Shown: one piece after another, positions 10,129 through 59,094 of the stretch | Position numbering within the stretch: the first letter of the stretch is position 1 | How the letters are laid out: every line of letters starts with the position of its first letter | Source of the DNA: Minisyncoccia bacterium | GTDB taxonomy: Bacteria > Patescibacteriota > Minisyncoccia > Phycocordibacterales > UBA9973 | Direction: 5' to 3' | Assembly (NCBI GenBank): GCA_038323465.1 | Contig: JBBQGX010000002.1 | Coordinates: forward strand, 132 to 64,131 | Length of the DNA stretch: 64,000 bases | Position numbers and translations under genes: made by a program | Notes under the pieces: model-generated | What the model was told of the DNA's origin: nothing | Databases searched by the model: none | The model's input: the letters and a program-made list of their open reading frames with translations, nothing else

Positions 10129-11912
10129 ATGGAAAATAGAAAAGACTACTCAAATCTACACAGAATGCTTGTGCTAAAATATTTTTGGCAGGTTATAAGA
10201 CGATTTAAAATATCGTTTTTTACTATTATTATATTATCTGTAGTGTCTTCTTTTTTGGATATCTATATACCACTTAAGTATCTAAAATTATGGGATGTTT
10301 TAAATACAAATGACTTTAGTCTTGTCTCTACTGCTAAATCTTTAATAATTTTAATTTTATTATTTAACTTTTCACGCTGGGCACTAAGAAGAGCTGTAGG
10401 TTATACAAATGATTATTTCCAAACAAATGTAATGGAGGGATTAAGGAAGCAAGCCTTTTCTTATATGATAGGGCATTCTCATAATTTCTTTGCAAATAAT
10501 TTTGGTGGGTCACTGACTTATAGAGTAAATAAATATGCTAGAGCTTTTGAAAGATTAATGGATAGATTCGTAGATGATGGTATGCCACTTGTTGTTAGAT
10601 CTCTAGGTACTATAATAGCCATCTATACTCTGATGCCGAAGTATTCATATATTCTTACTGTATTTTCACTCATATTTTTAATTACAGCTCTTGTATTTAC
10701 AAAATATAAATTGAAATATGATGTTATTGCTGCCGAGTCTGACTCAAAAACAACAGGTGCTCTTTCAGATTCCATAAGTAATCATTCATCTATTCAACTT
10801 TTTGCTGGTCACGAATATGAAAATATAAAAGTAGGAAAAGTGATAGAGAGTCAAAAGAAGGCAACAGTATTTAATTTATATTTATGGGAAACATTAGGGG
10901 CTATCCAAAGTTTCTATATATTAGCTATTGAATTTGTAATTTTTTGGTTAGCTATAGGAGATTGGAGAGCTGGACTTATTGGAGTACCTGTAATAGTAGT
11001 TCTTTAAAGTTATATTATTCGTCTAAGTGAAAGCTTGTGGCGTTTTGCTGGTATTGTCAGAGTTTTCTATGATGGTTTCGCTGATGCTCAAGAAATGGCA
11101 ATTATTTTAGATATGTCCTATGAAGTTGATGATGAAATTACCAATAATTTAATTAAAGTGAAAGGAGAAATTATTTTTGATAATGTGACTTATGTTTATG
11201 AAAATAATAATCAAAAAGTTTTTGATAATTTTTCTCTTACAATAAAAGCAGGGGAGAAAGTTGCAATCGTTGGATCATCTGGTGCAGGGAAGTCTACATT
11301 TGTTAAACTCTTAATGCGACTCTTTAATCTACAAGAGGGAAGAATACTCATCGATAATATAGATATATCAAAAATATCTCAAAAAAATCTACGTGAACAG
11401 ATAGGCTTTGTTCCTCAAGATCCAGTTTTATTTCACAGGTCTCTAATGGAGAATATTCGTTATGGTAGACGTGATGCGACAGACGAAGAAGTAATAAGGG
11501 CTGCAAGCCTAGCATATTGTGAGGATTTTATTAGCAATTTACCATTGGGTTATAATACATATGTTGGAGAGAGAGAGGGATTAAACTCTCAGGTGGTGAG
11601 CGTCAACGAGTAGCTATTGCCCGTGCAATACTAAAGAATGCTCCGATCCTTGTACTTGATGAGGCAACATCAGCGCTTGATTCTGAGTCCGAATCAGTTA
11701 TTCAGGACGCACTTCATAATCTAATAGAAGGCAAGACGGTTATAGTTATCGCTCATAGATTATCGACTATTCGTGACATGGAACGTATTATTGTTATTTC
11801 AAATGGAAAAATTGAAGAAGATGGAACACATGATGAATTGATTGAAAAAGAAAATGGTATATATAAAAAACTTTGGGATATTCAATCCGGGGGATTTAAG
11901 CTGAAAATTTAA
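10129..11912 (+). pseudogene. Disrupted ABC exporter (MsbA-like TMD-NBD fusion): in-frame TAA plus +2 frameshift
   Basis: The TMD ORF 10129-11007 and the NBD ORF 11035-11613 are in the same frame, separated only by the TAA at 11005-11007. The NBD signature [16 protein letters not shown]...LDEATSALD...IAHRLSTI continues in another frame from 11580 to the TAA at 11910-11912. Confidence 0.75.
11567..11576 (+). repeat. (GA)5 dinucleotide tract at the frameshift site
   Basis: gttg-gagagagaga-ggg. Removing one GA restores [15 protein letters not shown]. Confidence 0.85.
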
Positions 11913-14086: not shown

Positions 14087-14356
14087 TTAATCTTTCATGT
14101 GGATAACTTTTAGATTGTAGGAAATTGGCGTATCTTTTTTTATATTCTGGATCACTCTTGAGTGTTTGATCGGCTTCTCTCCTTCATCAATTTTCTTCAT
14201 AATTTGGTCTAATTCATCAGCCAAATAGACTCTATAGTTATTGATAGGGTGTCGAGAAGCACTTAACTTTCCCGACTTGTCCCAATTGCGAAGAGTAAGA
14301 GTTGAAACTCCCAATCTTTCACTTGCTTCTTTAATACTTAAATATTGTTTTTGCAC
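14087..14356 (-). CDS. MerR/excisionase-type HTH DNA-binding protein
   Basis: YLSIKEASERLGVSTLTLRNWDKSGKLSASRHPINNYRVY is a MerR-type HTH. Confidence 0.75.
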   Translation of the reverse strand: MQKQYLSIKEASERLGVSTLTLRNWDKSGKLSASRHPINNYRVYLADELDQIMKKIDEGEKPIKHSRVIQNIKKDTPISYNLKVIHMKD

Positions 14357-14445
14357 GGCACCAGTATACGTTAATAAACATTAATAAACAAGCAAGAATA
14401 TTTTTTAGTTTAGTAATGTTTATGCATGATTATAAAAGTATGGAA

Positions 14446-14502
14446 AAGTAGTAGGCAGTAAGTAGTATGTAGTATATGAAAATGTAGTAAGTAGTATGTA
14501 TT
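14446..14502. repeat. 7-nt-periodic array, AAGTAGT type (about 8 units)
   Basis: aagtagt aggcagt aagtagt atgtagt atatgaa aatgtagt aagtagt atgtatt. Lies in the divergent region between the HTH gene and the giant gene. Confidence 0.6.
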
Positions 14503-14702
14503 GTGGTAAATGTACCGCAAGCTTCACTTTAGGTTTCTTTGTGTCCATCGCGCAAAGTGAGTTATACAGGTGAGTGAGGAAAATTATTTAAGGTAGACAT
14601 TTTTATAAAAATTGAAAATAAAGTACAGTTATTTTTAAATTTTAAGTGAAAACGATATTTTATAAAAAACCTAAAAAATCTTTAAAAATAAGCATTTTTT
14701 TC

Positions 14703-14763: not shown

Positions 14764-17700
14764 TTGAGGAAAACATTATTTTGTAAAAATAAATTAGAAA
14801 GTTTAAAAGAAAAAATTCCACCGAAAGTCGAGGGTGGGATTTTTTCTTTTCCATCAAAAGATTGGATTGATAATTTTTTAAGATTTGAAAAATTATCAGA
14901 GACAGACAGAGATGGTAAAAATGAAATTATTCAAACAAAAATATTAACAACTGACCAAAATAAAAAAATGATTAAAGAAAACAAAAACAAAAATATAGAA
15001 GGAAAAATATTTCTTAAAAACCAAATTTCCCAAATTTATAAAAATTCTGGGATATTAAAAACTTCAGCTTTCTTTCTTTTTATTTTGGTTTCTTTTTATT
15101 TTGGTTTAAATAAAGTAGAAGCAGTTGATACTACATCTCCCGATGTAAACATCACATATAGTGAAAATCCAGTTGGAGCAACAAACGAAATAATTACAGC
15201 AACATATTCAGAACCGATAACAAGTGCTCCAACTATTAGTATCAATCAGCCCGGAACAGCAGACGTAACAAACGCACCAATGATAGCTCCTGGAAGTGTG
15301 TGGACTCCAAGACTCGCGGCGGAAGCAAATTATTGGAGTTCAGTTACTTATGGTAATGGACTCTTTGTGGCAGTGGCTAGCAACGGTACAAATAGAGTTA
15401 TGACTTCTCCTGATGGAATTACTTGGACAGCAAGAATGGCAGCTGAAGCAAATAGTTGGAATTCCATCACTTATGGTAATGGACTCTTTGTGGCAGTGGC
15501 TAGCAATGGTACAAATAGAGTTATGACTTCTCCTGATGGAATTACATGGACTGCACGAACTGCCGCTGAAGTAAATGGTTGGTATTCTGTAACTTATGGT
15601 AATGGTTTGTTTGTTTCAGTTTCTTATAATGGCACAAACAGAGTCATGACATCTGCCGATGGAATTACTTGGACAGCAAGAATGGCAGCTGAAGCAAATC
15701 AGTGGATGTCAGTTGCTTACGGTAATGGACTCTTTGTGGCCGTTGGTTCTGGTGGGACAAATAGAGTTATGACTTCTCCTGATGGAATTACTTGGACAGC
15801 AAGACAAACCCCTGAAGTAAATGGTTGGTATTTTGTAACTTATGGTAATGGTTTGTTTGTTTCAGTTTCTTACGGTGCTGCAAGTAAAATAATGACTTCC
15901 CCTGACGGGATAACTTGGACGGTGATGAGTATTACCTCATATTATCTAACAAATATAACTTATGCTCAAGGGGTTTTTATAGCACTTGGTCAGTTTGGAA
16001 CACTCATAACATCTACCGATGGTATCACTTGGAATACCAGAGTATGTGAGTATGGTAGTTGGAATTCAGTCGTTTATGGTAATGGTTCCTTTGTAGCAGT
16101 ATCCTCTGATGTAATAAATAGAGTTATGACTTCTCCTGTAAGTTATAGTTATAATTATAATGTAATTATTGCAAATGGAACTAATTACTTAGATGGAATT
16201 ACAACTGTAAGTTTATCCACAACAGCAGACGCAGCAGGAAATATTTCAAATCCTCCAACAAATAATACATTTACTATTGATACAACAGGTCCAACGGTGG
16301 CTCTATCTTATAGTGCAAATTCGGTAAAAGCCGGAAATCAAGTAATTACGGCTACATATTCAAGCCCTATACTAGGAACACCGTTGATTAGTATCAATCA
16401 ACCTGGATCTATAGATATATCAAATGCTTCAATGTCAGGAAGTGGGGTAGTGTGGACTTATAATTATATAGTGAATACTACAAATGGAAATACTTATATA
16501 GATGGTATTTCGAATGTTAGTTTATCTATAGTGACTGATGCCACTTTTCATTCTTCATCTTTACCAACAAATAATTCTTTTATTATTGATACTATAGCTC
16601 CTATACCAACTATTACTCAAACATCCAACCCTGCAAAAGTTGGAACGAATACAATTACAGCTAAATATCTTGAAGCTCTTACAAACACTCCTACTATTAA
16701 TATAGATCAACCAGGCACAACTGATATAAGCAATGTAACAATGAACAAAACAAATATGACCGGAGGTTGGTCTATTGGTTCTGGTGGATTACAATCTTCA
16801 ACTTGGAAGTCTTTGATTTATGGTAATGGTATTTATGTAGCTGTTTCTTCTGATGGTACAAATAGAGTCGCGACAAGTACTGATCCTACGTTGAATATTT
16901 GGAGTTTACAAAATGTAGCAGAATCAAATAATTGGCAATCTGTCACCTATGGTAATGATCAATTTGTAGCTGTTGCTAGTAGTGGAACAAACAGAGTTAT
17001 GACATCTCCTGATGGAATCACTTGGGCAACAAGAACGGCTGTTGAAGCAAATCAGTGGAGGTCAATTACATATGGTAATGGTATCTTTGTAGTTGTTGCT
17101 GATTCTGGAACAAACAGAGTTATGACATCTCCTGATGGAATTACTTGGACAGCACGATCTGCTTCATCGATAAGTAGTTGGTATAGTGTCGCTTACGGAA
17201 ATGGTCAATTTGTGGCTGTTGCTTATAATGGTACAGATAGAGTTATGACATCACCAGATGGAATTACTTGGACTTCTCGTACTGCATCTGCAACAAATAG
17301 TTGGCAATCTGTTACTTACGGAAATGGTCAATTTGTGGCAGTTGCTAGTAGTGGATCAAACCTAGCTATGACATCACCAGATGGAATTATTTGGACAGGA
17401 AGATCATTGGGTAGTTCTGGTTGGCAAGCTGTCACCTACGGAGATGGTTTCTTTGTAGCTGTTGGCTCTAACTATAAAGCAATATCACAAGATGGTATAA
17501 GTTGGCAGTCCTCAGTATCGGGATATTTATTTAATTCTATTATTTATAATAACGGTTTTTTCTTTGCAGTTGGATACGGTGTACATACATTTTCTCCTAC
17601 ATCTATTTATTCCTATACTTATACTGTTAACCAAGCAGATGGTAGTACATATGTAGACGGTAATGCGAATATAAGTTTATCTACTTCAACAGATTTAACA

Positions 17701-20700
17701 GGGAATACAAATACTGCTCCTATAAGTTCATTTAGGGTTGATACCACTCCACCAACTACTGATATAACTTATAGCTCAAATCCTGCGGACGTAGGAATAA
17801 ATACAATAACAGCAAATTATTCTGAACCTATATCCTCAACTCCAACTATTAGTATAAATCAACCCGGCTCAATTGACATAATAAATGCTTCAATGGTTAC
17901 ACCTGTAAGTGTATGGACACCTGTATCTGTTCCTCTAAGTAGTTGGTATTCGATTACTTATGGTAATGGTTTGTTTGTGGCTGTTGGTGGTGGAATTAAT
18001 TCAGTTATGACATCTTCTGATGGCATTAATTGGATTATTAGGGAAGGGATAATAGGAAAAAACTGGTCTTCTGTAACTTATGGTAATGGACTATTTGTGG
18101 CAGTTGGATTTTCTGGAGTCATGACCTCACCCGATGGAATCACTTGGATATCAAGATTTGGTGTGACATTATCTTCTGTTGCTTTTGGTAATGGTTTGTT
18201 TGTAAGTATAAATACTAGTAATGGTAATATTGCGACTTCCTCTGATGGAATAACTTGGACATATAGAATAATAGAAAGTTCTAGTCAATGGAATTCAATT
18301 GCTTACAATAATGGACTTTTTGCTGTTGTTAATAATAATGGAGGAGTTGGAGGAGTTAGGACTTCTCCTGATGGTATAAATTGGACACTAAGAGATTCAC
18401 CTAGTGGTAATTGGCGGGCCATAAATTCTGGTAATGGTATTTTTGTAGCAGTTGGTCAAGGGGTAGTTATGACTTCACTTGATGGAATAACTTGGATATC
18501 AAGAGCTGGTGTTTCTTTTGGTACTTGGCAATCTATTACCTATGGTAACGGTCTTTTTGTAGTTGTTGGTGATGGTGGCACAAATAGAGTTATAACATCA
18601 ACTGATGCAATTACTTGGACAAAACGAACAGCGTCAGAAGCAAATCAATGGGTTTCTGTAACCTATGGTAATGGCCAATTTATTGCAGTTTCTTCAAGTG
18701 GCACAAATCGAGTCATGACATCACATTCTGGATATATATATAATTATAATGTTAATAAAGCAGACGGTAGTACATATGTAGATGGAAATGCAACTGTCAG
18801 TCTATCTGCGACGGTAGATCTAGCTGGGAATCCAACCGAAGCTCCAACTGGTACAACATTTGCAATTAATACTTCCAACCCAACTGTGGCACTTTCATAC
18901 AGTTCAAGTCTTGCAAAAGCTGGCACAAATATTATTACCGCTACATATGATAAAGCTGTGACTTCAGCTCCAGCCATAAGTATTGATCAGCCTGGTATTA
19001 CAGACATCACAAGTGTCCCAATGACAGGAAGCGGTAAAGTTTGGACATATAGTTATAATGTGAATTCTGCCAATGGAAGTAATTACATAGATGGAGTTGC
19101 AACAGTCGGTCTCTCGACTGTAACTGATGCGGGTGGAAATACCGCACTTTCTCCAACCAATGAAATCTTTACAATTGATACAACAAGTCCAAATGCATCT
19201 ATCACATACTTGCCAAATCGACCAGTCAAAAGTGGGGAAGCTCTAACTATCACCGCAGAACTTAGTGAACCACTTGCCGATACACCTATACTTAAAATCG
19301 GAATCACTGGAGTTAACACACTAGTTGCGACTGACATGACAAAAATAGATTCGACTCACTATTCATATATTTATACAGTTGGGATAGGGGATGGAGATGC
19401 AACCATCTCTCTATCTATGGCTACAGATGTTGTTACTAACATTGTCACATCTATACCTATCTCAGGGGCAACATTTAAAATAGACAATATATTACCTACC
19501 GGAACTATCGAAGCCGTATGTACCACTATTGGGAATGGATGTATTGAGACAGGGAGAATAGCAACTCCACAAGAATCATATCAAGTCGGAATTATTAAAG
19601 GTACAGCATCAGATGAAGTCGGGGGTACGGAGGTCAGTACAGTTGCGATTTCTATCCAAGATACAACTACAAATAAGTGGTATAGTGGAACTTCATTTAC
19701 GGATGCCAGTGATACATATTTAAATACTACTGGTACAATCACATGGAGTTATAATTTTTCTTCAGTACCTCTAATTATCGATCATATTTATTTAATTAAT
19801 ATTAAAATTACAGACGGAGCAACCAATACAAAAATTATTCCTCTCTCGTTTAAATTCACCAACTCTCCACCAGTAGTTTCAAATGTCACAGCCAGTCAAG
19901 CACTCGGAGGTGGAATCGTATCTGTAACATATGATGTGACAGATATAGAATCCTCCCAAACGACGAACTCACTGTTCTATAGTGTTGGAACTACTCTCAC
20001 AGGAGTTATCACCGATTCAGCCTCATCCCTTATCGTTTCTGACGGAACTAATTTCCCAACTACTGGAACTATTTTAATCGGGGATGAAATGATTGGGTAC
20101 ACTAAATCAGGTAATAATTTTACGATAACTAGAGGTGTACTTTCAACCACGGCATTTTCTCATACAACAGGAAGTCCAATATATATTAAAGCTGTCACAA
20201 CTGTAGGTACTGGAATCGGATTATCTAATAAAGGAACTGGGAAGACAATATCATGGAACGCTCAAACTGAAGCTATTGATTATGAGAGTTTAACAGGAGT
20301 GATTAAAGTAGTTGCCAATGATGGCGCGGCTGGTTCGATGATCGGATCATTAGATTCAACACCATTTATTATAGATGCAGCTGCTCCTATTCCCTCTGCT
20401 CCTCTTACTTTCGATGCTGGTACAGCAGGGATTGCAGGAAGTGCCACTATTACTATCCCAATGCCGACCGACATCTCAGCAATTGAATACAAAATAAGTG
20501 ATGACGCCAATATTGAAACAAATGTAAATACGACTGGTTGGGTTACGATAACTGGAAGTACAACAATTCCATGGACTTTTGATTCCGATATTGAATTGAA
20601 GAATTTGAAATTACAATTTAGAGATGCTTATGGAAATACAACAGTCGAAGAAACAATTTCGACTCAAACGCCAATCCCATCTTCTTCTTTCTTGGTACAA

Positions 20701-23700
20701 GATACTTCAAATATTTCAGCAACAGTTCCATATTATGATATGTATATCGGATGGCAGGCAGCATCTATTAATGGTTTCTCATCATACAAATTAGAATACG
20801 CCACATCAAATGACAATATAAATTATGGAAGCTATACATCTATTTCAGACTCTGGACTTTCAACTTATTCTACTAACTACTATATTCATCGAAACCTAAC
20901 GCCTAATACTTTCTACCGTTATCGTCTAGGAGTTATTGGAACAAACGGGAATACAACAGTCAGATCGAATTCGTATATCACAACCAAGACTGATGGAGTT
21001 CAAAACTATGATGAAGGGGGAGGTGGCTCTGTGGCTACAGCTCCAAAAGTTGAGAATGTCGTCGCTACCCAAGGGGATGACAAACAAGTCTCTATCTCAT
21101 ACAAACTAACCGATATTTCTTTTACAAAAAAAGTTAATCCCTCATATGAATCATATTTGTTTTACAATATTGGTATCACACTCCCAACTAATCTATTAAC
21201 AGTGAATACTTTAGCAGTTTCAGATGCTTCTAAATTAAAATTATCAGGATATATTCTCGTTAACAATGAAGTCATTAAATATACTGGAATAACTGGCAAC
21301 AACCTAACGGGTCTTGTTCGGGGAACTTGGCCAGGTACCAGTGGACGTAGTACTAGAACCAACAATTCATTTTTCTCAGGGACCCCTGTTTGGATCCTCG
21401 CCTCTGGTACAACAAATATTTTAAATACCGAAACTGCTATCTCTGTTGGACAAATAGGAACAACAATTTGGAATACATACGAAGAACCAATCCTCGCTGG
21501 ATCAAGTTATCCAAATGTTGGAATTAAAATATTGGTTCATGACAATCAAGATGCACTTTCAGGACCACTTTCAAATCAAAATGATTTCTCAGAAAATGGG
21601 ATTATAAGTACTCTTGATCTAACTGCGCCAACTATTTCATTTAGTGTAATAGAGGCAACAGGAGCAGAAAGTGTCACACCCGTCTTACTGACTATCAATC
21701 TAGCTAGAGCCTACCCACAAGATACTACAGTCTCATATTCATTAACTGGTACTGCTACAAGTGCAGACTATACTTTGGCTAACGGCACGATTACCTTTAC
21801 AACAGGGGAAACAACGAAAGAAATATCAATTCCAATTATCAATGATTCTTTGAAAGAATTGGATGAGACTATCATTGTGACTCTATCAAGTCCTATCAAC
21901 GGAGTACTCGGCGCGGGTACTACATATACATATACTATTACCGACGATGATCAATTAGGTAATATTCAATTTACTAATACTTCATCAGAAAAAGGGGAAG
22001 CTAGTGTCACTCCTTTTGATATTGAAATATCACTTTCAGAAATTTCAGGAACAGATACAACTGTTTCGTATACTATAAGTGGGACTGCAACTAATGAAGA
22101 AGATTATACTTTAGTAGATGGAGTTGTTACCATTTTAGCTGGGGAGACAACAACTACTCTTACGATTCCTGTGATTAACGATACCTTAAAAGAAGAAGCG
22201 GAAACTGTGATTTTGACTCTCTCAAATCCAACCAATGCAACTCTCGGAGTAAATACAATTTATACTTATACTATTTTAGATGACGATAATTTAGCATTAA
22301 TCGGATTTGGGACAGCGACAAGTGAAGGCTTGGAATCTCTAACGCCCGTTAATATTCCAATTTCAATCTCCTCTATTTATCCAGAGGATATTAGTGTCTC
22401 ATATACAGTCGGAGGTGGAACTGCGACAGATGGTGGGATTGATTACACTTTATCAAACGGCATAGCGACAATTGTAAAAGGACAAACGATGACAACAATT
22501 CCGATCATTATTAACAATGATAAATTATCAGAAGAAAGTGAGACAATTATTATTACTTTAACTGACCTTATAAATGCTACTTTCGGAGATAATACAACAT
22601 TTACTTATACAATTTTAGATGATGAAATTGCCGTCAGTGAATTAGCTGGGACTAATGTTAAATCAACTTCAGCTCTGATCACTTGGAATACAGGAGACTT
22701 CGCGGGCTCAGTTGTTGAGTATGGAATAATTGCTCCTGAGATAGAAGGAGCATATAATTTGAAAAAAGAAAAAACAGAAAAAGTTCTCGGCCACCGTGTT
22801 TATCTCAGTGGATTAACACCATTAACAAAATATTACTTCAAATCTTCCTCAACTAATTTAGCTGGAGAAACAACTACATCTATATCTGATTTTACAACAA
22901 CTTCTGGCCCGGTTATCTCATCTGTTGCTCAAGGAATAATTACTGATACTGGAGTTACTGTTACTTGGGTAACAGACACGCCTTCTAATTCATATATTTC
23001 ATTTGGAATAGATGAAAATTTAATTGTTCCTAACAGAGCTGGTAATACAGAACTTGTAGTAGATCATACTGTAATTCTCTCTAATTTAGATTCAGAAAAA
23101 ACATACTACTATCTAATTCAATCAACAGATGAAGCCGGAGGAATCAGTGAAGATGCTAACGGAGGAACATTTTACAACTTTACAACAATCTCAGATGCAA
23201 CCGCTCCAATAGTTACAGATATCGCTACTCCAATCATCACTTCTGATTCTGTCGCTATTGTTTGGAAAACAAACGAACAATCAAATAGTCAGGTTCTCTA
23301 CAGTACAACGACAGGAGGGTACAATGAGAGTTCAACTCTAGGAGCAAATCAAGTACTCAATCACTTAGTCACAGTTGTTGGACTAACTCCAGAAACTACT
23401 TATTACTATGTCATTAAATCAGCTGACCAAAAGAGCAACTTAACTACAACAGAAGAGCAAACATTTAAAACAACTAAAGTCAAAGAAACAGTGATCTATT
23501 CAGGTGGGGGATCAGTGGGAGTTCTCCAATCAATATATGATTCTCTTTTAAAAGAGAATGAAGAAAATAAAATAAAATTAAAACTTCAAGATACAAATGC
23601 CCCAATTATTTCGAATGTAACAATATCAAATATTACTCCATTTAGTGTGACAGTTATGTTTGAGACGAACAAGGAGACGATAGCTTTTGTAAAATATGGA

Positions 23701-24921
23701 AAAGAAATATCATATGGAGATATTGCGGGAGATGATAATTTAAAAATTTCGCACTCAATAATACTTCGAGGTTTGACTATGGGTACGGAATACCATATCA
23801 AGGTTTCAGTTATGGATAAATTTGGAAACATTGGAACAGGAGAAGATCAAACCTTCAAAACCAAATACTTAACCGAAAAACTTGATGAACTTAAAAAGAT
23901 AGATAACATCGAACAATTCCAGAAAGAAATTGAAGCGACGATTGAATCAATCTTACCATCCCTTGTTCCTCCGTTTGTTGGTAAGCCAGAGGTTACAGAG
24001 ATCACAGAAAACAGTGCAAAAGTGAGCTTTAAAACAAACATTAAAGCCTTTCCAGTTGTAAACTATACTACTGAGATAGAGTACGATATCACTAAAGAAA
24101 ATCCATATAGTGGGGAAATCTCAGATACTACTACTAAAAATGTAAACCATACTTTACAAATCCTTGGTTTAAAACCTAATACAAAATATCACATCATGGC
24201 TAAAGCCTTCTCCCTCCCTCAGGTGATAGGTAAGTCAGATGATATAACTTTCATCACAGCAGCTTCCAAGATTCGTGGTTCTATTGTGGAAAAGAAAAAT
24301 GATTCATTTACCGTTGTTTGGAATACTGATACCCCAACTTCTTCAATCGTAGAATACAAAAATATTAAAACTGGAAAAACCTCTCGTTTGACAGATGATG
24401 CCAAGAATTATTCTCACTCAGTAAAAGTAGAGAATCTTACTCCTGGAACATCTTATGCTGTCCGAATTTCAGGTCTTAATATCGCTGGGAACATAGTAGA
24501 AGCAGGGGAATCAATCATGGTTAATACTGGCACTGATACTATTGCACCATCTATTGTGAGCTTCAAAGTAGATAGTGCTCTTGTCCTTGGACGAACAGAT
24601 CGTACTCAAACGATTGTCTCTTGGAAGACTGATGAACCATCCACATCTATAGTATATTTTGAAGAAGGCTCTGGTTCACCAGATAAAGCTCTTGTGAATA
24701 AGCAAGAAGACAATGAATTGACTATGAATCACGTCATGATGCTTACAACTCTTAAACCAGGAACGGTTTATCGTCTACAGGTTGTCTCTGTTGATGATGC
24801 TAATAATCAAACAAAATTACCAGTTAGAACAATTATTACCCCAAAGAGAACTGAGTCGATTGTGGATGTGATCTTCAAGAACTTTGATGAGACATTTAAT
24901 TTCATTAAAAATGTGAGGTAA
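14764..24921 (+). CDS. Giant (3385 aa) secreted/surface protein: Ig-like modules, three Asp-box beta-propeller arrays, four Calx-beta domains, about seven FN3-like domains
   Basis: A single uninterrupted ORF. The track start is TTG at 14764. The ATG at 14968 would give an N-terminal hydrophobic anchor/signal (TSAFFLFILVSFYFGLNKVEA). Repeats are listed as separate features. Confidence 0.9.
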   Translation: MRKTLFCKNKLESLKEKIPPKVEGGIFSFPSKDWIDNFLRFEKLSETDRDGKNEIIQTKILTTDQNKKMIKENKNKNIEGKIFLKNQISQIYKNSGILKTSAFFLFILVSFYFGLNKVEAVDTTSPDVNITYSENPVGATNEIITATYSEPITSAPTISINQPGTADVTNAPMIAPGSVWTPRLAAEANYWSSVTYGNGLFVAVASNGTNRVMTSPDGITWTARMAAEANSWNSITYGNGLFVAVASNGTNRVMTSPDGITWTARTAAEVNGWYSVTYGNGLFVSVSYNGTNRVMTSADGITWTARMAAEANQWMSVAYGNGLFVAVGSGGTNRVMTSPDGITWTARQTPEVNGWYFVTYGNGLFVSVSYGAASKIMTSPDGITWTVMSITSYYLTNITYAQGVFIALGQFGTLITSTDGITWNTRVCEYGSWNSVVYGNGSFVAVSSDVINRVMTSPVSYSYNYNVIIANGTNYLDGITTVSLSTTADAAGNISNPPTNNTFTIDTTGPTVALSYSANSVKAGNQVITATYSSPILGTPLISINQPGSIDISNASMSGSGVVWTYNYIVNTTNGNTYIDGISNVSLSIVTDATFHSSSLPTNNSFIIDTIAPIPTITQTSNPAKVGTNTITAKYLEALTNTPTINIDQPGTTDISNVTMNKTNMTGGWSIGSGGLQSSTWKSLIYGNGIYVAVSSDGTNRVATSTDPTLNIWSLQNVAESNNWQSVTYGNDQFVAVASSGTNRVMTSPDGITWATRTAVEANQWRSITYGNGIFVVVADSGTNRVMTSPDGITWTARSASSISSWYSVAYGNGQFVAVAYNGTDRVMTSPDGITWTSRTASATNSWQSVTYGNGQFVAVASSGSNLAMTSPDGIIWTGRSLGSSGWQAVTYGDGFFVAVGSNYKAISQDGISWQSSVSGYLFNSIIYNNGFFFAVGYGVHTFSPTSIYSYTYTVNQADGSTYVDGNANISLSTSTDLTGNTNTAPISSFRVDTTPPTTDITYSSNPADVGINTITANYSEPISSTPTISINQPGSIDIINASMVTPVSVWTPVSVPLSSWYSITYGNGLFVAVGGGINSVMTSSDGINWIIREGIIGKNWSSVTYGNGLFVAVGFSGVMTSPDGITWISRFGVTLSSVAFGNGLFVSINTSNGNIATSSDGITWTYRIIESSSQWNSIAYNNGLFAVVNNNGGVGGVRTSPDGINWTLRDSPSGNWRAINSGNGIFVAVGQGVVMTSLDGITWISRAGVSFGTWQSITYGNGLFVVVGDGGTNRVITSTDAITWTKRTASEANQWVSVTYGNGQFIAVSSSGTNRVMTSHSGYIYNYNVNKADGSTYVDGNATVSLSATVDLAGNPTEAPTGTTFAINTSNPTVALSYSSSLAKAGTNIITATYDKAVTSAPAISIDQPGITDITSVPMTGSGKVWTYSYNVNSANGSNYIDGVATVGLSTVTDAGGNTALSPTNEIFTIDTTSPNASITYLPNRPVKSGEALTITAELSEPLADTPILKIGITGVNTLVATDMTKIDSTHYSYIYTVGIGDGDATISLSMATDVVTNIVTSIPISGATFKIDNILPTGTIEAVCTTIGNGCIETGRIATPQESYQVGIIKGTASDEVGGTEVSTVAISIQDTTTNKWYSGTSFTDASDTYLNTTGTITWSYNFSSVPLIIDHIYLINIKITDGATNTKIIPLSFKFTNSPPVVSNVTASQALGGGIVSVTYDVTDIESSQTTNSLFYSVGTTLTGVITDSASSLIVSDGTNFPTTGTILIGDEMIGYTKSGNNFTITRGVLSTTAFSHTTGSPIYIKAVTTVGTGIGLSNKGTGKTISWNAQTEAIDYESLTGVIKVVANDGAAGSMIGSLDSTPFIIDAAAPIPSAPLTFDAGTAGIAGSATITIPMPTDISAIEYKISDDANIETNVNTTGWVTITGSTTIPWTFDSDIELKNLKLQFRDAYGNTTVEETISTQTPIPSSSFLVQDTSNISATVPYYDMYIGWQAASINGFSSYKLEYATSNDNINYGSYTSISDSGLSTYSTNYYIHRNLTPNTFYRYRLGVIGTNGNTTVRSNSYITTKTDGVQNYDEGGGGSVATAPKVENVVATQGDDKQVSISYKLTDISFTKKVNPSYESYLFYNIGITLPTNLLTVNTLAVSDASKLKLSGYILVNNEVIKYTGITGNNLTGLVRGTWPGTSGRSTRTNNSFFSGTPVWILASGTTNILNTETAISVGQIGTTIWNTYEEPILAGSSYPNVGIKILVHDNQDALSGPLSNQNDFSENGIISTLDLTAPTISFSVIEATGAESVTPVLLTINLARAYPQDTTVSYSLTGTATSADYTLANGTITFTTGETTKEISIPIINDSLKELDETIIVTLSSPINGVLGAGTTYTYTITDDDQLGNIQFTNTSSEKGEASVTPFDIEISLSEISGTDTTVSYTISGTATNEEDYTLVDGVVTILAGETTTTLTIPVINDTLKEEAETVILTLSNPTNATLGVNTIYTYTILDDDNLALIGFGTATSEGLESLTPVNIPISISSIYPEDISVSYTVGGGTATDGGIDYTLSNGIATIVKGQTMTTIPIIINNDKLSEESETIIITLTDLINATFGDNTTFTYTILDDEIAVSELAGTNVKSTSALITWNTGDFAGSVVEYGIIAPEIEGAYNLKKEKTEKVLGHRVYLSGLTPLTKYYFKSSSTNLAGETTTSISDFTTTSGPVISSVAQGIITDTGVTVTWVTDTPSNSYISFGIDENLIVPNRAGNTELVVDHTVILSNLDSEKTYYYLIQSTDEAGGISEDANGGTFYNFTTISDATAPIVTDIATPIITSDSVAIVWKTNEQSNSQVLYSTTTGGYNESSTLGANQVLNHLVTVVGLTPETTYYYVIKSADQKSNLTTTEEQTFKTTKVKETVIYSGGGSVGVLQSIYDSLLKENEENKIKLKLQDTNAPIISNVTISNITPFSVTVMFETNKETIAFVKYGKEISYGDIAGDDNLKISHSIILRGLTMGTEYHIKVSVMDKFGNIGTGEDQTFKTKYLTEKLDELKKIDNIEQFQKEIEATIESILPSLVPPFVGKPEVTEITENSAKVSFKTNIKAFPVVNYTTEIEYDITKENPYSGEISDTTTKNVNHTLQILGLKPNTKYHIMAKAFSLPQVIGKSDDITFITAASKIRGSIVEKKNDSFTVVWNTDTPTSSIVEYKNIKTGKTSRLTDDAKNYSHSVKVENLTPGTSYAVRISGLNIAGNIVEAGESIMVNTGTDTIAPSIVSFKVDSALVLGRTDRTQTIVSWKTDEPSTSIVYFEEGSGSPDKALVNKQEDNELTMNHVMMLTTLKPGTVYRLQVVSVDDANNQTKLPVRTIITPKRTESIVDVIFKNFDETFNFIKNVR
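15296..16140 (+). repeat. Asp-box (BNR) propeller blade array 1, ~132-nt period
   Basis: Blades W-x-S-V-T-Y-G-N-G-L-F-V-A-V...N-R-V-M-T-S-P-D-G-I-T-W-T contain S-x-D-x-G-x-T-W. Adjacent blades (for example 15350-15440 versus 15480-15570) are nearly identical at the nucleotide level. Confidence 0.8.
16762..17600 (+). repeat. Asp-box propeller blade array 2
   Basis: Same blade consensus (YGNGQFVAVASSGTNRVMTSPDGITWT) repeated about 6-7 times. Confidence 0.8.
17905..18730 (+). repeat. Asp-box propeller blade array 3
   Basis: Same blade consensus with more divergent blades (TSSDGINW, TSPDGITW, TSLDGITW, TSTDAITW). Confidence 0.75.
21631..22630 (+). repeat. Four tandem Calx-beta domains
   Basis: Four units of roughly 80-95 aa of the type V-S-Y-x-x-x-G-T-A-T-x-x-x-D-Y-T-L-x-x-G-x-x-T-F...I-x-I-I-N-D-x-L-K-E-x-x-E-T-I-I-x-T-L-S-x-P. 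Confidence 0.75.
22631..24840 (+). repeat. About seven FN3 / purple-acid-phosphatase-N-like domains
   Basis: Recurrent pattern S-A-x-I-x-W-x-T-x-x-P-x-x-S-x-V-x-Y-G...H-x-V-x-L-x-G-L-x-P-x-T-x-Y-Y-Y. Confidence 0.65.
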
Positions 24922-24980: not shown

Positions 24981-25424
24981 ATGGAAACAAAAAAAAATAA
25001 AATAAAAATTCTGTTGGTTGATGATGATGAAATGATGCGTATCTATTTTCGGGATATATTTTGGATACATGGACGTTCTGATACTTATGACATAACAATG
25101 GCAAGTTCTATTGCTGAAGCCGAAGTGATAATCTCAGATAAAAACACAAAACCAGACACGATCTTTCTCGATGTTATGATGCCAATAAAAGGTGAAAAGA
25201 ATAATCCTGAGGATCAAATAAATAGATGCCTTTCTTTTATCGGAAAAGTTAAAGGTGATAAAAATTTATCTTCGACTAAAATTATTATTTATTCGAGTCA
25301 AAAAGAAAAGTCGATTCAAGAAGAAGTTAAAAAATTGGGAGTAGACGGGTATTTAATAAAAGGGGAACTTATGCCTAAAGAGATAATCACGTTCACGGAT
25401 AAAATACATGAGTCAAATAATTAA
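24981..25424 (+). CDS. Stand-alone response-regulator receiver domain protein
   Basis: KILLVDDDEMMRIY...IFLDVMMP...KIIIYSS...GVDGYLIKG is a CheY-like REC domain. No output domain. Confidence 0.85.
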   Translation: METKKNKIKILLVDDDEMMRIYFRDIFWIHGRSDTYDITMASSIAEAEVIISDKNTKPDTIFLDVMMPIKGEKNNPEDQINRCLSFIGKVKGDKNLSSTKIIIYSSQKEKSIQEEVKKLGVDGYLIKGELMPKEIITFTDKIHESNN

Positions 25425-26751
25425 AATTAAAAACCTTAATTTATGGTATGAAAAAGGAAAACCAATAGAAGTCCATGCACTAAAGAATATTAATCTTGAA
25501 ATAGACAAGGGTGACTATGTAGCATTTTTCGGACCATCCGGTTGTGGTAAAACCACGATGCTTTATTCTATTTCCGGTATCGATCGTTTTCAAGAAGGAG
25601 AAGTTTTGATAAACGATCGAGATATTTCAGGTTTGACCAATCAAGAACTTGCTATTTTCAGACAGACAGGGATTGGAATCGTTTTCCAACAATTCAATTT
25701 GGTGCCATCACTCAATGTTTTAAAAAATGTGGCTCTGCCGATGCTTTTTGTCGGGATCACATCTGAGAAAGCTGAGATAGAAGCCTATAAACTTTTAGAA
25801 AGGCTAGGAATTACAGAGTATGCGAATAGGTACCCATATGAGCTCTCAGGTGGGCAACAACAGAGAGTCGGTATTGCTCGAGCTTTAGCAAATGATCCGC
25901 CAATAATTATTGCCGATGAACCACTAGGAAATTTGGACTCAGTAAATGCAAAAAGAGTCCTTGAATTTTTAAAAGAACTCAATGAAAAAGATGGCCGAAC
26001 TATAATCATGGTTACTCATGAAGCTTGGAGTTTGCGTGACGTTAAAACTATTTTTCACATGAAAGATGGCGAGATTAACGATGTTGAAGAAATCAAAAGT
26101 GATACCGTCGCTTTGTCATTGTCTAAACATGTTTCAGAGCAACTTTCTTCTGTTGGAGGAGAAGTCGAGAAAAAAGAAGAAAAAATTTCTGCTCGAGTTC
26201 TAGCCAACTTTTTACTTCGTGGGTATTCGATGGATGAGATTAGAGTTTTTGAATCTTTTGTAAATGATCGATTTGAAAATAAAATAGATAAAAAAGAGTT
26301 TTGTAAATTAATCAATAAACCATTTAAAGAGGGTGGTGTAGGTCTTTGGAAAAAGAAAGCCGACAGGGTTACTGAATATTTAGAAGGTATTATTGATAGA
26401 AGAAAAGATATTGAACATATATATAATATTATAGAGAAAAACCCAGAATTATCTATTAATGATGAGATTGGAAATATTCGTCAGTGGATACTAGAGGGAT
26501 ATACGGGGAACTTGTCAGCACTCCAGAGTATGGCGCTTGACCAAGTTATTTCTGATCGGATTAAGGGTTATATACCTCCCGATAAAGTTGTCGAAATACT
26601 TGATCTCTCAAACAATAAATTTGGGGTTGGTTTATCATTCCGGGCAGCTCAATTGATAGCTGAAAAATTGGAATTAATTTTAAATGAAGACAGTAAAGAT
26701 ATCGACAATTCCACAGATATTAATGAGAGTATTTTAGAAGAAAAACAATAA
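25408..26751 (+). CDS. ABC transporter ATP-binding protein (MacB/LolD-like) with ~220-aa C-terminal extension
   Basis: Walker A FGPSGCGKTT, Q-loop, signature LSGGQQQRVGIARAL, Walker B IIIADEP, H-loop TH. Residues ~225-447 have no recognisable motif. Overlaps the REC gene by 17 nt. Confidence 0.85.
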   Translation: MSQIIKIKNLNLWYEKGKPIEVHALKNINLEIDKGDYVAFFGPSGCGKTTMLYSISGIDRFQEGEVLINDRDISGLTNQELAIFRQTGIGIVFQQFNLVPSLNVLKNVALPMLFVGITSEKAEIEAYKLLERLGITEYANRYPYELSGGQQQRVGIARALANDPPIIIADEPLGNLDSVNAKRVLEFLKELNEKDGRTIIMVTHEAWSLRDVKTIFHMKDGEINDVEEIKSDTVALSLSKHVSEQLSSVGGEVEKKEEKISARVLANFLLRGYSMDEIRVFESFVNDRFENKIDKKEFCKLINKPFKEGGVGLWKKKADRVTEYLEGIIDRRKDIEHIYNIIEKNPELSINDEIGNIRQWILEGYTGNLSALQSMALDQVISDRIKGYIPPDKVVEILDLSNNKFGVGLSFRAAQLIAEKLELILNEDSKDIDNSTDINESILEEKQ

Positions 26752-26757
26752 TATATT

Positions 26758-27966
26758 ATGCCTGAAAAAAAATTAAAATATAGTGAATTATTTATTCTTT
26801 CTCTTAGAACTTTTAGGACTAAACCCCAAAGAGCGATTTTAACAATAGCTGGTATGTCTATTGGGATTGCGACAGTTCTCCTCCTGGTCTCTTTGGGTTA
26901 TGGATTACAATATATTTTAATTGGTAAATTGATGACGACGGAAGATTCACTCATAACAATGGAAGTCTCATATCCATCAGAAAGTAATTTAACTATTAAA
27001 CCAGAATCTCTTTTTGATTTAAAAAATTCGGAAGATGTTGCGGAAGTTTCGCCTGTGGCAGAATTCCCTGGTGAAATTAGTACAAATGGAACTTCAAGTC
27101 TTTTGATTGATACTCGTATTGTTGAACCATCATATTTTCGTTTGGCTGGAATATTACCAAATGTTGGTGTTGCTCTCGGAGAGGGTAAGGGAACGATTGT
27201 CTCGAGTCAGACTCTAATTGCCCTCAATACTCCCATTGATCAGATATCACTGGGAAAACTATTTAATATTAAAGTTTTATATCAAGATGAAGGCGCAAGT
27301 TTAATTGAAAATGATATTTCATCAGAGGCTACTCCACTTGTTGGAATTATCACTGATGATGCAATGGCCCCCACGGCAATTATTAATGCTAACGCACTTT
27401 CAAAGGAGCCTCCTTATTATCGAAAAGTTTTAATCAAAGCAAAAAATGTTGATGTTCTCGAGAATCTTCGTGACAGATTGCTCGGTGAAGGATTTCTTGT
27501 TTCAGCTAAAATTGACTTAGTAACTCAAGCTCGTAAAATAACAAATATTATTACAATAATTTTGGGAGTCTTTGGTATCACAGCACTTATAGTTTCAGCT
27601 ATTGGTATGTTTAACACTATGCTTGTTGGATTCCTTGAACGTATATATGAAGTTGGTATCTTGAAATCACTCGGTGCGACAGATCATGATGTCCGAAATC
27701 TTTTCCTAGTGGAAGCTTCCATCATGGGGCTTCTCGGTGGGGCAGGTGGGGTGATTATAGGTTTCTCTATCGGTAAGTTATTTAACTTCTTACTTTCGGT
27801 TGTAGCTCTACGCTATGGGGGAAAATCATTTGCACTGTTTTCTACTCCTTTATGGTTTGTTTTGGTTATTATGGCTTTATCTCTATTTATTGGTTTTATT
27901 TCTGGTTGGTGGCCAGCACATCGCGCCGCGGGACTTTCTCCAAAAGAAGCTTTTACAAAAAGATAA
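26758..27966 (+). CDS. ABC transporter permease, FtsX/MacB-like
   Basis: N-terminal TM helix, a large extracytoplasmic domain, then a C-terminal three-helix bundle with GILKSLGAT (FtsX-type). Confidence 0.8.
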   Translation: MPEKKLKYSELFILSLRTFRTKPQRAILTIAGMSIGIATVLLLVSLGYGLQYILIGKLMTTEDSLITMEVSYPSESNLTIKPESLFDLKNSEDVAEVSPVAEFPGEISTNGTSSLLIDTRIVEPSYFRLAGILPNVGVALGEGKGTIVSSQTLIALNTPIDQISLGKLFNIKVLYQDEGASLIENDISSEATPLVGIITDDAMAPTAIINANALSKEPPYYRKVLIKAKNVDVLENLRDRLLGEGFLVSAKIDLVTQARKITNIITIILGVFGITALIVSAIGMFNTMLVGFLERIYEVGILKSLGATDHDVRNLFLVEASIMGLLGGAGGVIIGFSIGKLFNFLLSVVALRYGGKSFALFSTPLWFVLVIMALSLFIGFISGWWPAHRAAGLSPKEAFTKR

Positions 27967-28067: not shown

Positions 28068-29792
28068 TTGAAAATGAAGCTAGAAACTAAGAAATGCCAG
28101 AATTGTAATCATGATTTCACGATTGAACCAGAGGATTTTCTTTATTATGAGAAGATTAAAGTTCCAGCTCCGACTTTTTGTCCGGAGTGTCGAATGATAA
28201 GACGTATGATATGGCGTAATTGCAGGTCACTTTTCAAGAGAGCCTGTGATAGTTGTAAAAAGTCAGTTATCTCTATGTATAGCGAAGAGAGAACTAAAAA
28301 AGTCCACTGTATGGACTGTTGGAATTCTGATGACAGAGACCCTTTTATTTATGCTCGCCCATATGATTTCACTAGAAACTTCTTTGTTCAGTTAAAAGAA
28401 TTGCATGGAGAATGTCCGATTCTCTATGTTCATCATACGGGAACTCTAATACGATCAGAGTTTACAAATTATAGTCTTGATAATAAAGATTGTTATTTGT
28501 CTTACTCTGTTTTAGGATGTGAAGATGTTTTGTATTCTGAAATAATAGATAAATCTAAAAATAGTATGGACTGCTATGCAGTACAAAAAGTTGAGAACTG
28601 CTCGTACAATATTGATTGCGATACAAATTACAATAGTCATTTTGCTGTAAAATCACAAAAATGCATAGATTCATTTTTCGTTTATGATTGTAGTAATTGT
28701 CAGAATTGTTGCTTGTCGTACAATTTGCGCAACAAACAGTATGTATTTAAAAATAAAAAATTAACAAAAGAAGAATATGAAAAAGAAGTTTTAAAATTAT
28801 CACTCGATACATATTCTGGTTTTAAGGAAGCCCAGAAAGATTTTGATGACATTTTAAAAAATAAAGCGATTCATAGATTTGCTCAGGTTTATGGTTCACA
28901 AAATGCAATGGGGGATTATATTGGTAATTCAAAAGATGTATACAATTCTTTTGATGTTCAAAATTCTGAAAATATTCGATATACAGTGAGATCCATTGCT
29001 AATTCTAAAGACTGCTATGATAATCAAGGAATCGCTTCTGGTGAATTGATATATGAATCAATTGCAACAAGTTTTGGAACCTATAAAGATTATTTTACTT
29101 ATATATGTGTAGGGTCAAAAGAATGCGAGTATTCTTTTATGTGTAAAAATTGTTCGCATTGTTTTGGTTGTTCAGGATTAAAGAATTCGCAATACTGTAT
29201 TTTCAATAAACAATACGATAAAGACGAATATTTCAAAATGGTAGAGAAAATAAAAATACAAATGAGTGCAATACCTTATATTGATATCAAGGGAAGGGTT
29301 TATAAGTACGGCGAACTATTTCCTTATGAAATGTCTCCTTTTGGATACAATGAGACAAATGCGCATGATAATTTTCCTCTAACAAAAGAGCAAGCCTTTT
29401 TAAAGGGCTATCCATGGAAAGAAAAAGAAGAAAAAAATTACAATATAACGATAGAATCTAGAGATTTACCAGATGATATTAAAGAAGTTACTGACATTAT
29501 CCTTGATGAAGTCATCGCTTGTCCAAATAATGGAGACCAGAGGTATCAATGCACCACCGCTTATCGTATTATTGCTGAAGAATTGCAGTTTTATAGACAA
29601 AAAGGCTTACCCTTACCTAGATATTGTCCTAATTGCAGGCATTATCAGAGGTTAGAATATAGAAATCCTGTTAAATTGTATACTCGTTCATGCATGAAAA
29701 GTGGTTGTGCTAATACTTTCTCCACAACTTATGCCCCGGTACGTTCCGAGAAAGTGTTTTGTGAGAATTGCTATCAAAAAGAGGTACTTTAG
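28068..29792 (+). CDS. Cys-rich multi-zinc-ribbon protein, paralog 1 of 3 (uncharacterised family)
   Basis: The track start is TTG at 28068; the ATG at 28074 is more likely. Shares with 36321-38108 and 38137-39846 the N-terminal CxNCxxxFxIEPEDFxFYEK...PxPTxCPxCRxxRR, two internal Cys-rich modules ending N-K-x-Y-x-K-E-E-Y, and the C-terminal CxxC...CPxCR...YCExCYQxE. Confidence 0.8.
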   Translation: MKMKLETKKCQNCNHDFTIEPEDFLYYEKIKVPAPTFCPECRMIRRMIWRNCRSLFKRACDSCKKSVISMYSEERTKKVHCMDCWNSDDRDPFIYARPYDFTRNFFVQLKELHGECPILYVHHTGTLIRSEFTNYSLDNKDCYLSYSVLGCEDVLYSEIIDKSKNSMDCYAVQKVENCSYNIDCDTNYNSHFAVKSQKCIDSFFVYDCSNCQNCCLSYNLRNKQYVFKNKKLTKEEYEKEVLKLSLDTYSGFKEAQKDFDDILKNKAIHRFAQVYGSQNAMGDYIGNSKDVYNSFDVQNSENIRYTVRSIANSKDCYDNQGIASGELIYESIATSFGTYKDYFTYICVGSKECEYSFMCKNCSHCFGCSGLKNSQYCIFNKQYDKDEYFKMVEKIKIQMSAIPYIDIKGRVYKYGELFPYEMSPFGYNETNAHDNFPLTKEQAFLKGYPWKEKEEKNYNITIESRDLPDDIKEVTDIILDEVIACPNNGDQRYQCTTAYRIIAEELQFYRQKGLPLPRYCPNCRHYQRLEYRNPVKLYTRSCMKSGCANTFSTTYAPVRSEKVFCENCYQKEVL

Positions 29793-33077: not shown

Positions 33078-33098
33078 TTGTATTTTAAAATTTAAATT

Positions 33099-33184
33099 AA
33101 TGTATTTGGAAGTGAGGTTAAATTCCTCCACTGTGCCGCAACGGTAATACCCCGAAAAGGGGATAAGTCCGGTCTTAATACATT
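33099..33184 (+). promoter_or_regulatory. Cobalamin riboswitch aptamer (short form lacking the long peripheral extension)
   Basis: P1 aatgtatt/aatacatt. Core TGGAAGTGAGGTTAAATTCCTCCACTGTGCCGCAACGGTAA matches the conserved GGGAA..GGTG.AA.TCC..C.G..CCGC.AC.GTAA block. Followed by AAGTCCGG (compare AAGCCAGGA). The downstream genes are DUF4430-type B12 binders. Confidence 0.7.
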
Positions 33185-33227
33185 GATGTTTCCCGAGCAG
33201 GAGAATATCTCTAAAATATTTAGACAT

Positions 33228-59057: not shown

Positions 59058-59094
59058 AAACAACACAAGTAATAGTAGAATAATTAAAATAATT

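Follow-up and report, generated by a model that had tools for sequence, protein, structure and literature searches.

The 64,000-nucleotide stretch analysed here, called the window (positions 132 to 64,131 of contig JBBQGX010000002.1 of a Minisyncoccia bacterium), contains a giant gene on its forward strand, the product of which is probably a Sec-exported, fibre-shaped, adhesin-like surface protein of a Paceibacteria bacterium (Patescibacteria, or Candidate Phyla Radiation, CPR). After a putative signal peptide, the chain is composed of small beta-sandwich stalk domains (six immunoglobulin-like, hereafter Ig-like, eight FN3-like and three Calx-beta), and five sandwiches are split by an inserted domain: three Ig-like ones hold a Ycf48-like beta-propeller, and two others a mini-domain of phage-tail type. 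Giant multidomain proteins that resemble adhesins are a common find, and Patescibacteria have them too. Distinctive here are the Ycf48-like propellers and the phage-tail-type mini-domain that bud from split sandwich domains, together with a predicted Sec export lacking a known anchor and a genetic linkage, widely conserved among relatives, with a CheY-like gene and with a transporter of MacB/FtsEX type. Host and particle recognition in Patescibacteria is little known, and published work has centred on type IV pili. The family offers five candidate binding heads with clear boundaries, a variable and presumably distal end, and a conserved base, while its conserved four-gene neighbourhood hints at how an anchor-less protein might be attached and regulated. 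It also highlights two very common uncharacterised blocks, a family of 7-bladed propellers whose cluster representatives number more than 50,000, and a small domain also present in phage tail proteins.

An intact gene with domains inserted in split sandwiches

The open reading frame (ORF) of the giant protein runs free of stops from 14764 to 24921 on the + strand (10.2 kb, 3385 codons) and represents a single gene. At the local GC content of ~33-38%, about one in 14 random codons would be a stop, so a frame of 3385 codons cannot be open by chance. The NCBI entry P0001 is identical to the window protein and is annotated at 3385 aa, while P0002 and P0006 share 56-57% identity and are colinear with it along 98% of the query. 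Homologues of 2,883-3,948 aa with the same domain order were found in independent metagenome assemblies from other samples, in agreement with the one 10.2-kb ORF called by the first-pass annotation of this DNA. Internal repeats with periods of 123 nt and 246 nt could point to an assembly artefact, either collapsed repeats or a chimera of separate genes, but the identity between these repeats, mostly 63-82% and never above 89-92%, is too low for collapse, and the C-terminal region recurs in 34 GTDB genomes. Given the colinear homologues in independent assemblies, collapse or chimera is very unlikely, and we regard such an artefact as scarcely credible.

The longest ORF opens at TTG 14764 (3385 aa). 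This start was rejected, as the similarity upstream consists only of Lys-rich low complexity and the conserved Met sits at ATG 14968. That Met aligns in seven homologues, and P0002 begins with it, confirming the start preferred earlier; residue numbers given here are counted from it (3317 aa).

Repeats were mapped by self-comparison of overlapping 120-residue chunks and with hidden Markov models (HMMs) built from repeat parts. Six Ig-like modules of ~114 residues each were found, three of which (modules 2, 5 and 6) run without a break. The other three, modules 1, 3 and 4, each have a 7-bladed beta-propeller between a four-stranded N-half and a three-stranded C-half. These propellers occupy residues 109-390, 596-877 and 981-1255, with a blade period of 41 residues and 21 blades in total. 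The insertion is always at the same hairpin, which reads ...A.M-SGSG-v.WtY.Y.V... in the intact copies and ...A.M...vWT[propeller]...MTSP..Y.Y.Y.V... in the split ones. The order of Ig N-half, blades and Ig C-half is kept in every complete propeller of the window protein and of eight homologues (HMM map). Of the 25 complete modules, 21 have seven detected blades; counts of five, six or eight in the remaining ones probably stem from degenerate blades. Both the self-comparison and the HMM map agree with the earlier description of an Ig-like module (~95-115 residues) bracketing each of three propeller arrays, which have 7 blades each.

We infer that the two Ig halves form one sandwich, because of the uninterrupted paralogous copies and the strand pattern. 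An AlphaFold2 (AF2) model of split Ig domain 1 with propeller 1, built from alignment A1, reached a pLDDT of 86.6 and a pTM of 0.82, and its strand order fits an insertion. Foldseek searches of the PDB with this model gave Ycf48 as the best match (5ojr, E 1e-12, TM-score 0.70, 17% identity); the top four matches were all Ycf48 (5ojr and 5oj3, E 1e-12 to 1e-10, TM-score 0.66-0.72), followed by designed and WD40-type propellers. A sequence-profile search of the PDB found nothing for the split-Ig and propeller unit. The Ig-like module itself had weak Big_12 matches in three of 11 family members, and its profile search against PDB sequences returned only a marginal match to a cadherin domain.

The blade motif S-P-D-G-I-T-W is exact in 16 of the 21 blades and degenerate in one more (16 matches to [ST].DG..W), and is missing from the last blade of each propeller because the chain returns there to the Ig domain. 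The canonical 8-residue Asp-box, S-x-D-x-G-x-T-W, did not occur in a scan for S.D.G.[TS]W, the blade motif S-x-D-G-x-T-W being one residue shorter, and the Pfam families BNR, BNR_2 and PSII_BNR had no match at E <= 1 in any of the three propellers. The Pfam matches on the propellers were EPTP (up to 65 bits) and DUF6242 (29-35 bits). 'Asp-box-like' is a fair label for the blade motif and 'Asp-box' is not. What is left of the Asp-box once assigned to each blade is a 7-residue variant, unmatched by BNR, within a fold nearest to that of Ycf48.

The profile of alignment A1 matched 50,423 cluster representatives at E <= 1e-3, of which 17,718 reached E <= 1e-30. The best-scoring 150 of these matches are mostly proteins of 1,000-7,000 residues with several propellers. 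The matches usually span the propeller only (positions ~55-345), and the full split-Ig unit (1-398) was matched only in close relatives. Named proteins with the same propeller belong to Bacteroidota, some of them sorted by the type IX secretion system (T9SS), and to Saccharibacteria. A literature search on DUF6242 found nothing directly relevant.

At the DNA level, Tandem Repeats Finder reported periods of 123 nt and 246 nt with 74-83% matches. The best blade pair, blades 1 and 2 of propeller 1 (15330-15412 versus 15453-15535), is 92% identical over 83 nt and 89% across the whole 123-nt blade, and the other blade pairs reach 63-82%; calling neighbouring blades almost identical in DNA was an overstatement. 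At identical amino acids, the fraction of same codons is 0.79 for the best pair versus a median of 0.57. This speaks, if modestly, for blades 1, 2 and 4 of propeller 1 having been duplicated more recently or having undergone gene conversion. The recent expansion or ongoing recombination suggested in the first pass has weak support at best, and the codon figures do not count as evidence that recombination is ongoing.

The second type of inserted domain is found in modules A (residues 1630-1795) and B (residues 2022-2201), which are ~170 residues each and 35% identical (E 5e-16), confirming two copies of the motif GxILxxxExIxYTxxxGNxxTxxxRG. Both are beta-sandwiches with an inserted mini-domain of ~60-70 residues (alignment A2), and the AF2 model of module A had a pLDDT of 80.5. 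Foldseek searches of predicted viral structures (BFVD) gave 48 matches to the mini-domain at E <= 1e-3 (best 5e-8), many of which cover only ~70-90 residues, with 1-3 A root-mean-square deviation and 22-34% identity. The matches are Caudovirales proteins, the named ones being tail protein, tail fibre protein and lambda Stf (side-tail-fibre) repeat, and the rest unnamed. A profile search of the PDB with modules A and B placed 8vjh (phage Chi tail tip, E 0.029, two places) first and 8rk3 (J-domain tail-tip protein, E 0.12) third; both matches are weak and align exactly over the mini-domain motif. No match to modules A and B was found among PHROGs profiles, and Foldseek searches of the PDB with module A returned generic sandwiches only, none significant. 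The likeness to phage tails proposed in the first pass is upheld mainly by the fold, the sequence matches being weak.

In RTX adhesins, ligand-binding domains are recognised by their emergence from split Ig-like domains, which project the binding domains off the fibre axis with the binding site outermost (PMC12077191). The same layout was found in all complete propeller modules of the nine proteins, and modules A and B follow the same plan. By analogy with RTX adhesins, the five inserted domains are probably multivalent ligand-binding heads held sideways from the fibre axis, their likely targets being glycans or surface polymers on a host cell or a particle. Asp-box-like propellers also occur in sialidases and other glycosidases, and a GH130 phosphorylase gene lies 5 kb upstream (8105-10039), features that would suit an extracellular enzyme or a polymer-processing scaffold with catalytic glycosidase- or lyase-like propellers and carbohydrate-binding or spacer domains. 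Such an enzymatic role appears improbable: Pfam and NCBIfam searches matched no catalytic family, the nearest fold is that of Ycf48, an assembly factor and not an enzyme, with binding propellers of designed and WD40 type next, and three near-equivalent propellers per chain fit multivalent binding better than catalysis.

Table 1. Features of the giant gene and its conserved neighbours (positions in the window)
Feature	Position	Strand	Basis or remark
MerR-family regulator, divergent, conserved upstream neighbour	14087..14356	-	Pfam MerR
Giant protein gene	14968..24921	+	Preferred start ATG 14968
Sec-type signal peptide (predicted)	14968..15123	+	Lys-rich n-region, then hydrophobic segment, V-E-A before VDTTSPD
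Split Ig-like domain 1	15121..16305	+	N-half 15121-15291, C-half 16138-16305; propeller 1 at 15292-16137
Ig-like domain 2, uninterrupted	16273..16614	+	N-half and C-half joined by SGSG turn
Split Ig-like domain 3	16582..17766	+	Holds 7-bladed propeller 2 (16753-17598)
Split Ig-like domain 4	17734..18894	+	Holds 7-bladed propeller 3 (17908-18732)
Ig-like domains 5 and 6, uninterrupted, then Cys-pair segment (19510-19854)	18862..19854	+	Self-comparison, HMM map
Module A, sandwich with inserted mini-domain (~20017-20247)	19855..20352	+	Motif G.ILI.DE.I.YT..GN..T.TRG
Segment of ~105 residues, then FN3 domain 0 (20668-21003)	20353..21003	+	fn3 E 1.6e-4 for second segment
Module B, second copy of sandwich with mini-domain (insert ~21205-21462)	21031..21570	+	Conserved in all eight homologues
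Three tandem Calx-beta domains	21610..22626	+	PF03160 (residues 2215-2553), self-alignment
Seven FN3/Pur_ac_phosph_N-like domains	22627..24843	+	Two linkers between: 23473-23592, 23878-23991
Conserved C-terminal tail KRTESIVDVIFKNFDETFNFIKNVR	24844..24918	+	25 residues
Stand-alone CheY-like receiver, 147 aa	24981..25424	+	Response_reg; 59 nt past giant gene
LolD/FtsE/MacB-type ABC ATPase, ~220-residue C-terminal extension	25408..26751	+	Overlaps receiver gene by 17 nt
MacB/FtsX-type permease, extracytoplasmic MacB_PCD domain	26758..27966	+	6 nt after ATPase gene

Export signal, stalk and the two ends of the chain

A Kyte-Doolittle scan found the sole hydrophobic segment of the protein at residues ~27-53, and the first domain opens directly after the V-E-A that follows it. 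In every full-length homologue, xDTTPP is directly preceded by a small residue (-3) and Ala (-1) at the corresponding place (VSA, ASA, SFA, AFA). By rule from this sequence pattern, the N-terminus is predicted to be a cleavable Sec signal peptide and not an anchor. The likely N-terminal anchor of the first-pass annotation was not retained, given that V-E-A after the hydrophobic segment fits a cleaved signal peptide better. The same annotation had held that lack of an export signal would weaken the adhesin idea, and a signal was found.

No other means of attachment was recognised in the chain. A scan of the whole protein found neither an LPXTG nor a PEP motif, and no hydrophobic window beyond residues 27-53; the signature of sortase, exosortase or archaeosortase sorting (motif, transmembrane helix and basic tail) was absent, and the RTX motif GG.G.D had 0 copies in the window protein. 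The C-terminal tail is not hydrophobic, and it has no match to known sorting motifs, with no LPXTG, RTX or transmembrane segment.

The C-terminal half contains most of the remaining stalk domains. Calx-beta (PF03160) was matched in three stretches with 99-111 bits against a gathering cut-off of 27, so the four copies counted in the first pass reduce to three by both Pfam and self-alignment. The seven C-terminal FN3 segments matched fn3 or Pur_ac_phosph_N with E 2e-10 to 2e-5; some single domains are under the gathering score and the whole protein is over it. The earlier count of about seven such domains was correct, and an eighth lies further upstream (residues 1901-2012, E 1.6e-4). The two linkers among these FN3 domains are probably helical, as judged from their sequence. 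Two further segments are presumed to be stalk domains: the Cys-pair segment at 19510-19854, which matched no Pfam family, and the segment of ~105 residues after module A, which had no significant Pfam match.

Comparison of orthologues showed that copy number varies by whole propeller modules, from 2 to 4 per orthologue: three are present in the window protein and P0006, four in P0002 to P0005, and two in P0009 and P0012. The Calx-beta array is larger in P0003 than in the window protein and is absent in P0004. Identity to the orthologues is 33-59% for the Ig and propeller array, 60-72% for modules A and B, 72-85% for linker 2 (23878-23991), 66-73% for the last three FN3 domains and 72-92% for the C-terminal tail. 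With this rise along the chain, variation is concentrated in the N-terminal half, and the C-terminal end stays constant. P0006 (locus L001) has an extra domain of ~170 residues (residues ~105-275) between the signal peptide and the first Ig module, which the window protein lacks and which can be taken as another sign of a variable distal end.

We favour the reading in which the N-terminal half, with its 2-4 propeller modules, would be the distal, fast-evolving end, diversifying with its target, and the C-terminal part (helical linker, last three FN3 domains and 25-residue tail) would be a conserved, cell-proximal base. As no membrane or wall-sorting motif follows the signal peptide, this base is probably attached through a conserved partner in the envelope, for which the MacB/FtsX-type transporter of the ATP-binding cassette (ABC) class encoded directly downstream would be the best candidate. 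A structural envelope component, such as an S-layer-like coat, sheath or spacer in which propellers and mini-domains serve self-assembly or bind the cell's own wall polymers, is a less likely explanation. The very conserved C-terminal region and neighbourhood across many Paceibacteria suggest a housekeeping envelope role, the composition (25% Thr/Ser, nearly free of Cys) resembles that of many envelope proteins, and known adhesive domains were not detected. However, a module number that varies from 2 to 4 and a least conserved N-terminal half are more typical of an outward interaction surface than of a lattice, and the architecture is fibre-like with laterally projected domains.

Several points weigh against an adhesin-like fibre with distal heads. 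The propeller family is functionally uncharacterised, with only EPTP and DUF6242-type matches in Pfam, and none of the adhesive domains in curated adhesin lists was recognised. Cleavage of the signal peptide is predicted by rule only; if uncleaved, it would anchor the protein by its N-terminus and reverse the polarity of the fibre. The contact between the Ig halves is deduced from sequence and the AF2 strand order. To our knowledge, many Paceibacteria have no known host, and a literature search on Paceibacteria surface proteins found nothing directly relevant. The adhesin candidacy advanced in the first pass gains from the split-domain layout and the export signal, and lacks a match to any known adhesive domain.

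Neighbouring genes and a possible transporter partner

Downstream of the giant gene, in the same orientation, are genes for a CheY-like receiver, an ABC ATPase and a permease (Table 1), and no terminator-like site was found in the 59 nt that separate the receiver gene from the giant gene. The sequence of the receiver shows the acidic pocket (DD), the phospho-acceptor D and the S and K positions. The ATPase matches ABC_tran with 117 bits, and LolD (E 4e-59) and FtsE (E 4e-56) both under their equivalog cut-offs. FtsX (67 bits) and MacB_PCD (35.6 bits) were matched in the permease, as expected of a MacB/FtsEX-type system. A search with the C-terminal extension of the ATPase returned 23 proteins, mostly fragments.

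The order of receiver, ATPase and permease genes is the same in the P0006 (L001) and P0011 loci, and in the P0005 locus the permease gene is directly downstream. To examine this linkage, GTDB species representatives were searched with the conserved C-terminal region (alignment A3), which gave 34 loci. Their titles are Candidatus Paceibacterota/Paceibacteria, Nomurabacteria, Yonathbacteria and Adlerbacteria, with some auto-labelled 'Saccharibacteria' and a few evidently mis-binned. The ATPase gene directly follows the giant gene in 27 of the 34 loci, and the permease gene comes next wherever the contig is long enough; 24 of those 27 loci also have the receiver gene. Across loci, the ATPases are 57-90% and the permeases 53-75% identical to their counterparts in the window. 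In L027 the three genes of the transporter neighbourhood lie on the other side of the giant gene, five of the 34 loci have no receiver, ATPase or permease within the available flank, and the contig of one was too short to judge. Genes further out differ between loci, indicating that the linkage is specific to the receiver, ATPase and permease genes. In seven loci, an extra CarboxypepD_reg membrane protein of ~620 residues is encoded between the giant and receiver genes.

FtsEX/MacB-type (type VII) ABC systems act on extracytoplasmic partners, and FtsX grips EnvC and PcsB. A similar partnership could be imagined here, in which the downstream MacB/FtsEX-type transporter keeps the fibre on the cell and possibly also moves or switches it, a proposal we consider speculative. 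The conserved linkers and C-terminal tail would be gripped by the extracytoplasmic domain of the permease, in the manner of FtsX with EnvC and PcsB; ATP hydrolysis, gated by the CheY-like receiver, would change the state of the fibre towards attachment, release or extension. If true, this would represent a signal-controlled, ATP-driven adhesin in ultra-small bacteria. We know of no adhesin for which transporter coupling of this kind has been described, and a literature search combining Patescibacteria, MacB and adhesin found nothing directly relevant.

Upstream, the divergent MerR-family gene is also present in L001 and in the P0011 locus, and nine GTDB loci have it several kb upstream of their C-terminal match. 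In the window, the region 14430-14560 (+), which lies between this gene and the giant one, contains short repeats of GTAGTA/AGTAGT type, followed by a GC-richer patch and a weak hairpin (14501-14520), and may be a regulator binding region. The upstream 400-600 bp had no Rfam family at gathering thresholds, no clear promoter and no terminator of note.

Other features were found elsewhere in the window. An ABC exporter at 10129-11613 (+) seems to be split into a 292-aa membrane-domain ORF and a 192-aa ORF with a partial ATPase (ABC_tran positions 2-93 of 137), which may reflect a disrupted gene or a frameshift introduced by sequencing. Three paralogous ORFs on the + strand (28068-29792, 36321-38108 and 38137-39846) encode proteins of ~570-595 residues, 36-39% identical and with many CxxC pairs, for which no Pfam or NCBIfam match was found. 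Relatives of these Cys-rich ORFs occur near the giant gene in L001, L002, L005 and L033, and may belong to a wider neighbourhood. An adenosylcobalamin (AdoCbl) riboswitch was found full length at 33081-33213 (+), with 61.1 bits against a gathering threshold of 50, just upstream of the ORFs 33277-33780 and 33785-35329.

A second predicted exported protein, of 975 aa, is encoded at 56130-59057 (+). It has extended arrays of NTTGxxNTAxG-type repeats and, at residues 734-801 (E 2e-12), a Peptidase_S74 'chaperone of endosialidase' domain, a design like that of phage tail fibres; several proteins of the propeller family described above also carry PF13884. The adjoining ORF 59038-60084 (+) encodes in its first ~160 residues G-W-containing repeats that are 45% identical to the start of the CarboxypepD_reg membrane protein of L001 (20367-22229), the protein that in seven other genomes lies between the giant and receiver genes.

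Comparison with known systems

The closest design is that of the RTX adhesins (MpIBP, FrhA, AhLap), which are likewise megadalton-scale fibres of tandem Ig-like extender domains. Ligand-binding heads, putative ones in the window protein, are in both inserted in a sandwich hairpin with adjacent N- and C-termini and project sideways, and both have stalk domains of Ca-binding type, Calx-beta in the case of the window protein. Unlike RTX adhesins, the window protein has a putative Sec signal peptide, its proposed binding region is N-terminal and its conserved end C-terminal, and its projected domains are propellers and a phage-type mini-domain. Patescibacteria are generally held to have no outer membrane, unlike the Gram-negative hosts of RTX adhesins, and no type I secretion genes were seen among the scanned neighbour genes. 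Membership of the RTX adhesins was rejected, given the lack of GG.G.D and the presence of a Sec signal peptide, and the resemblance is one of design only.

The propellers resemble Ycf48/HCF136 (PSII_BNR) and BNR propellers in having 7 blades and, in most of them, an Asp-containing turn that ends in T-W. They differ from Ycf48 in the shorter motif, in the lack of a BNR or PSII_BNR match in Pfam, and in their context, a giant extracellular protein versus a photosystem assembly factor. Their blade consensus is the same as that of the widespread 'YGNG.FVAV...S.DG..W' propeller repeat family, for which Pfam has no more than faint labels (EPTP, DUF6242, DUF6242_C). The mini-domain of modules A and B is similar in predicted fold, and weakly in sequence, to the small domain of lambda-J-type tail-tip or central-fibre proteins and of other tail and tail-fibre proteins of phages ('..E.I.....GN.L.v.RG..GT.a..H..G..V'), a domain that lacks a curated family definition; unlike in the phage proteins, the mini-domain is found here inside a cellular surface protein, inserted in a sandwich domain.

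The downstream genes recall FtsEX (with EnvC, PcsB or CwlO), LolCDE and MacAB in their LolD/FtsE-type nucleotide-binding domain and their MacB_PCD and FtsX domains, and also in the genetic linkage to an extracytoplasmic protein with conserved, probably helical linkers. In contrast to FtsEX-type systems, the partner would be a fibre of 3,300 residues and not a hydrolase activator, and the ATPase carries a 220-residue C-terminal extension and is preceded by a CheY-like gene.

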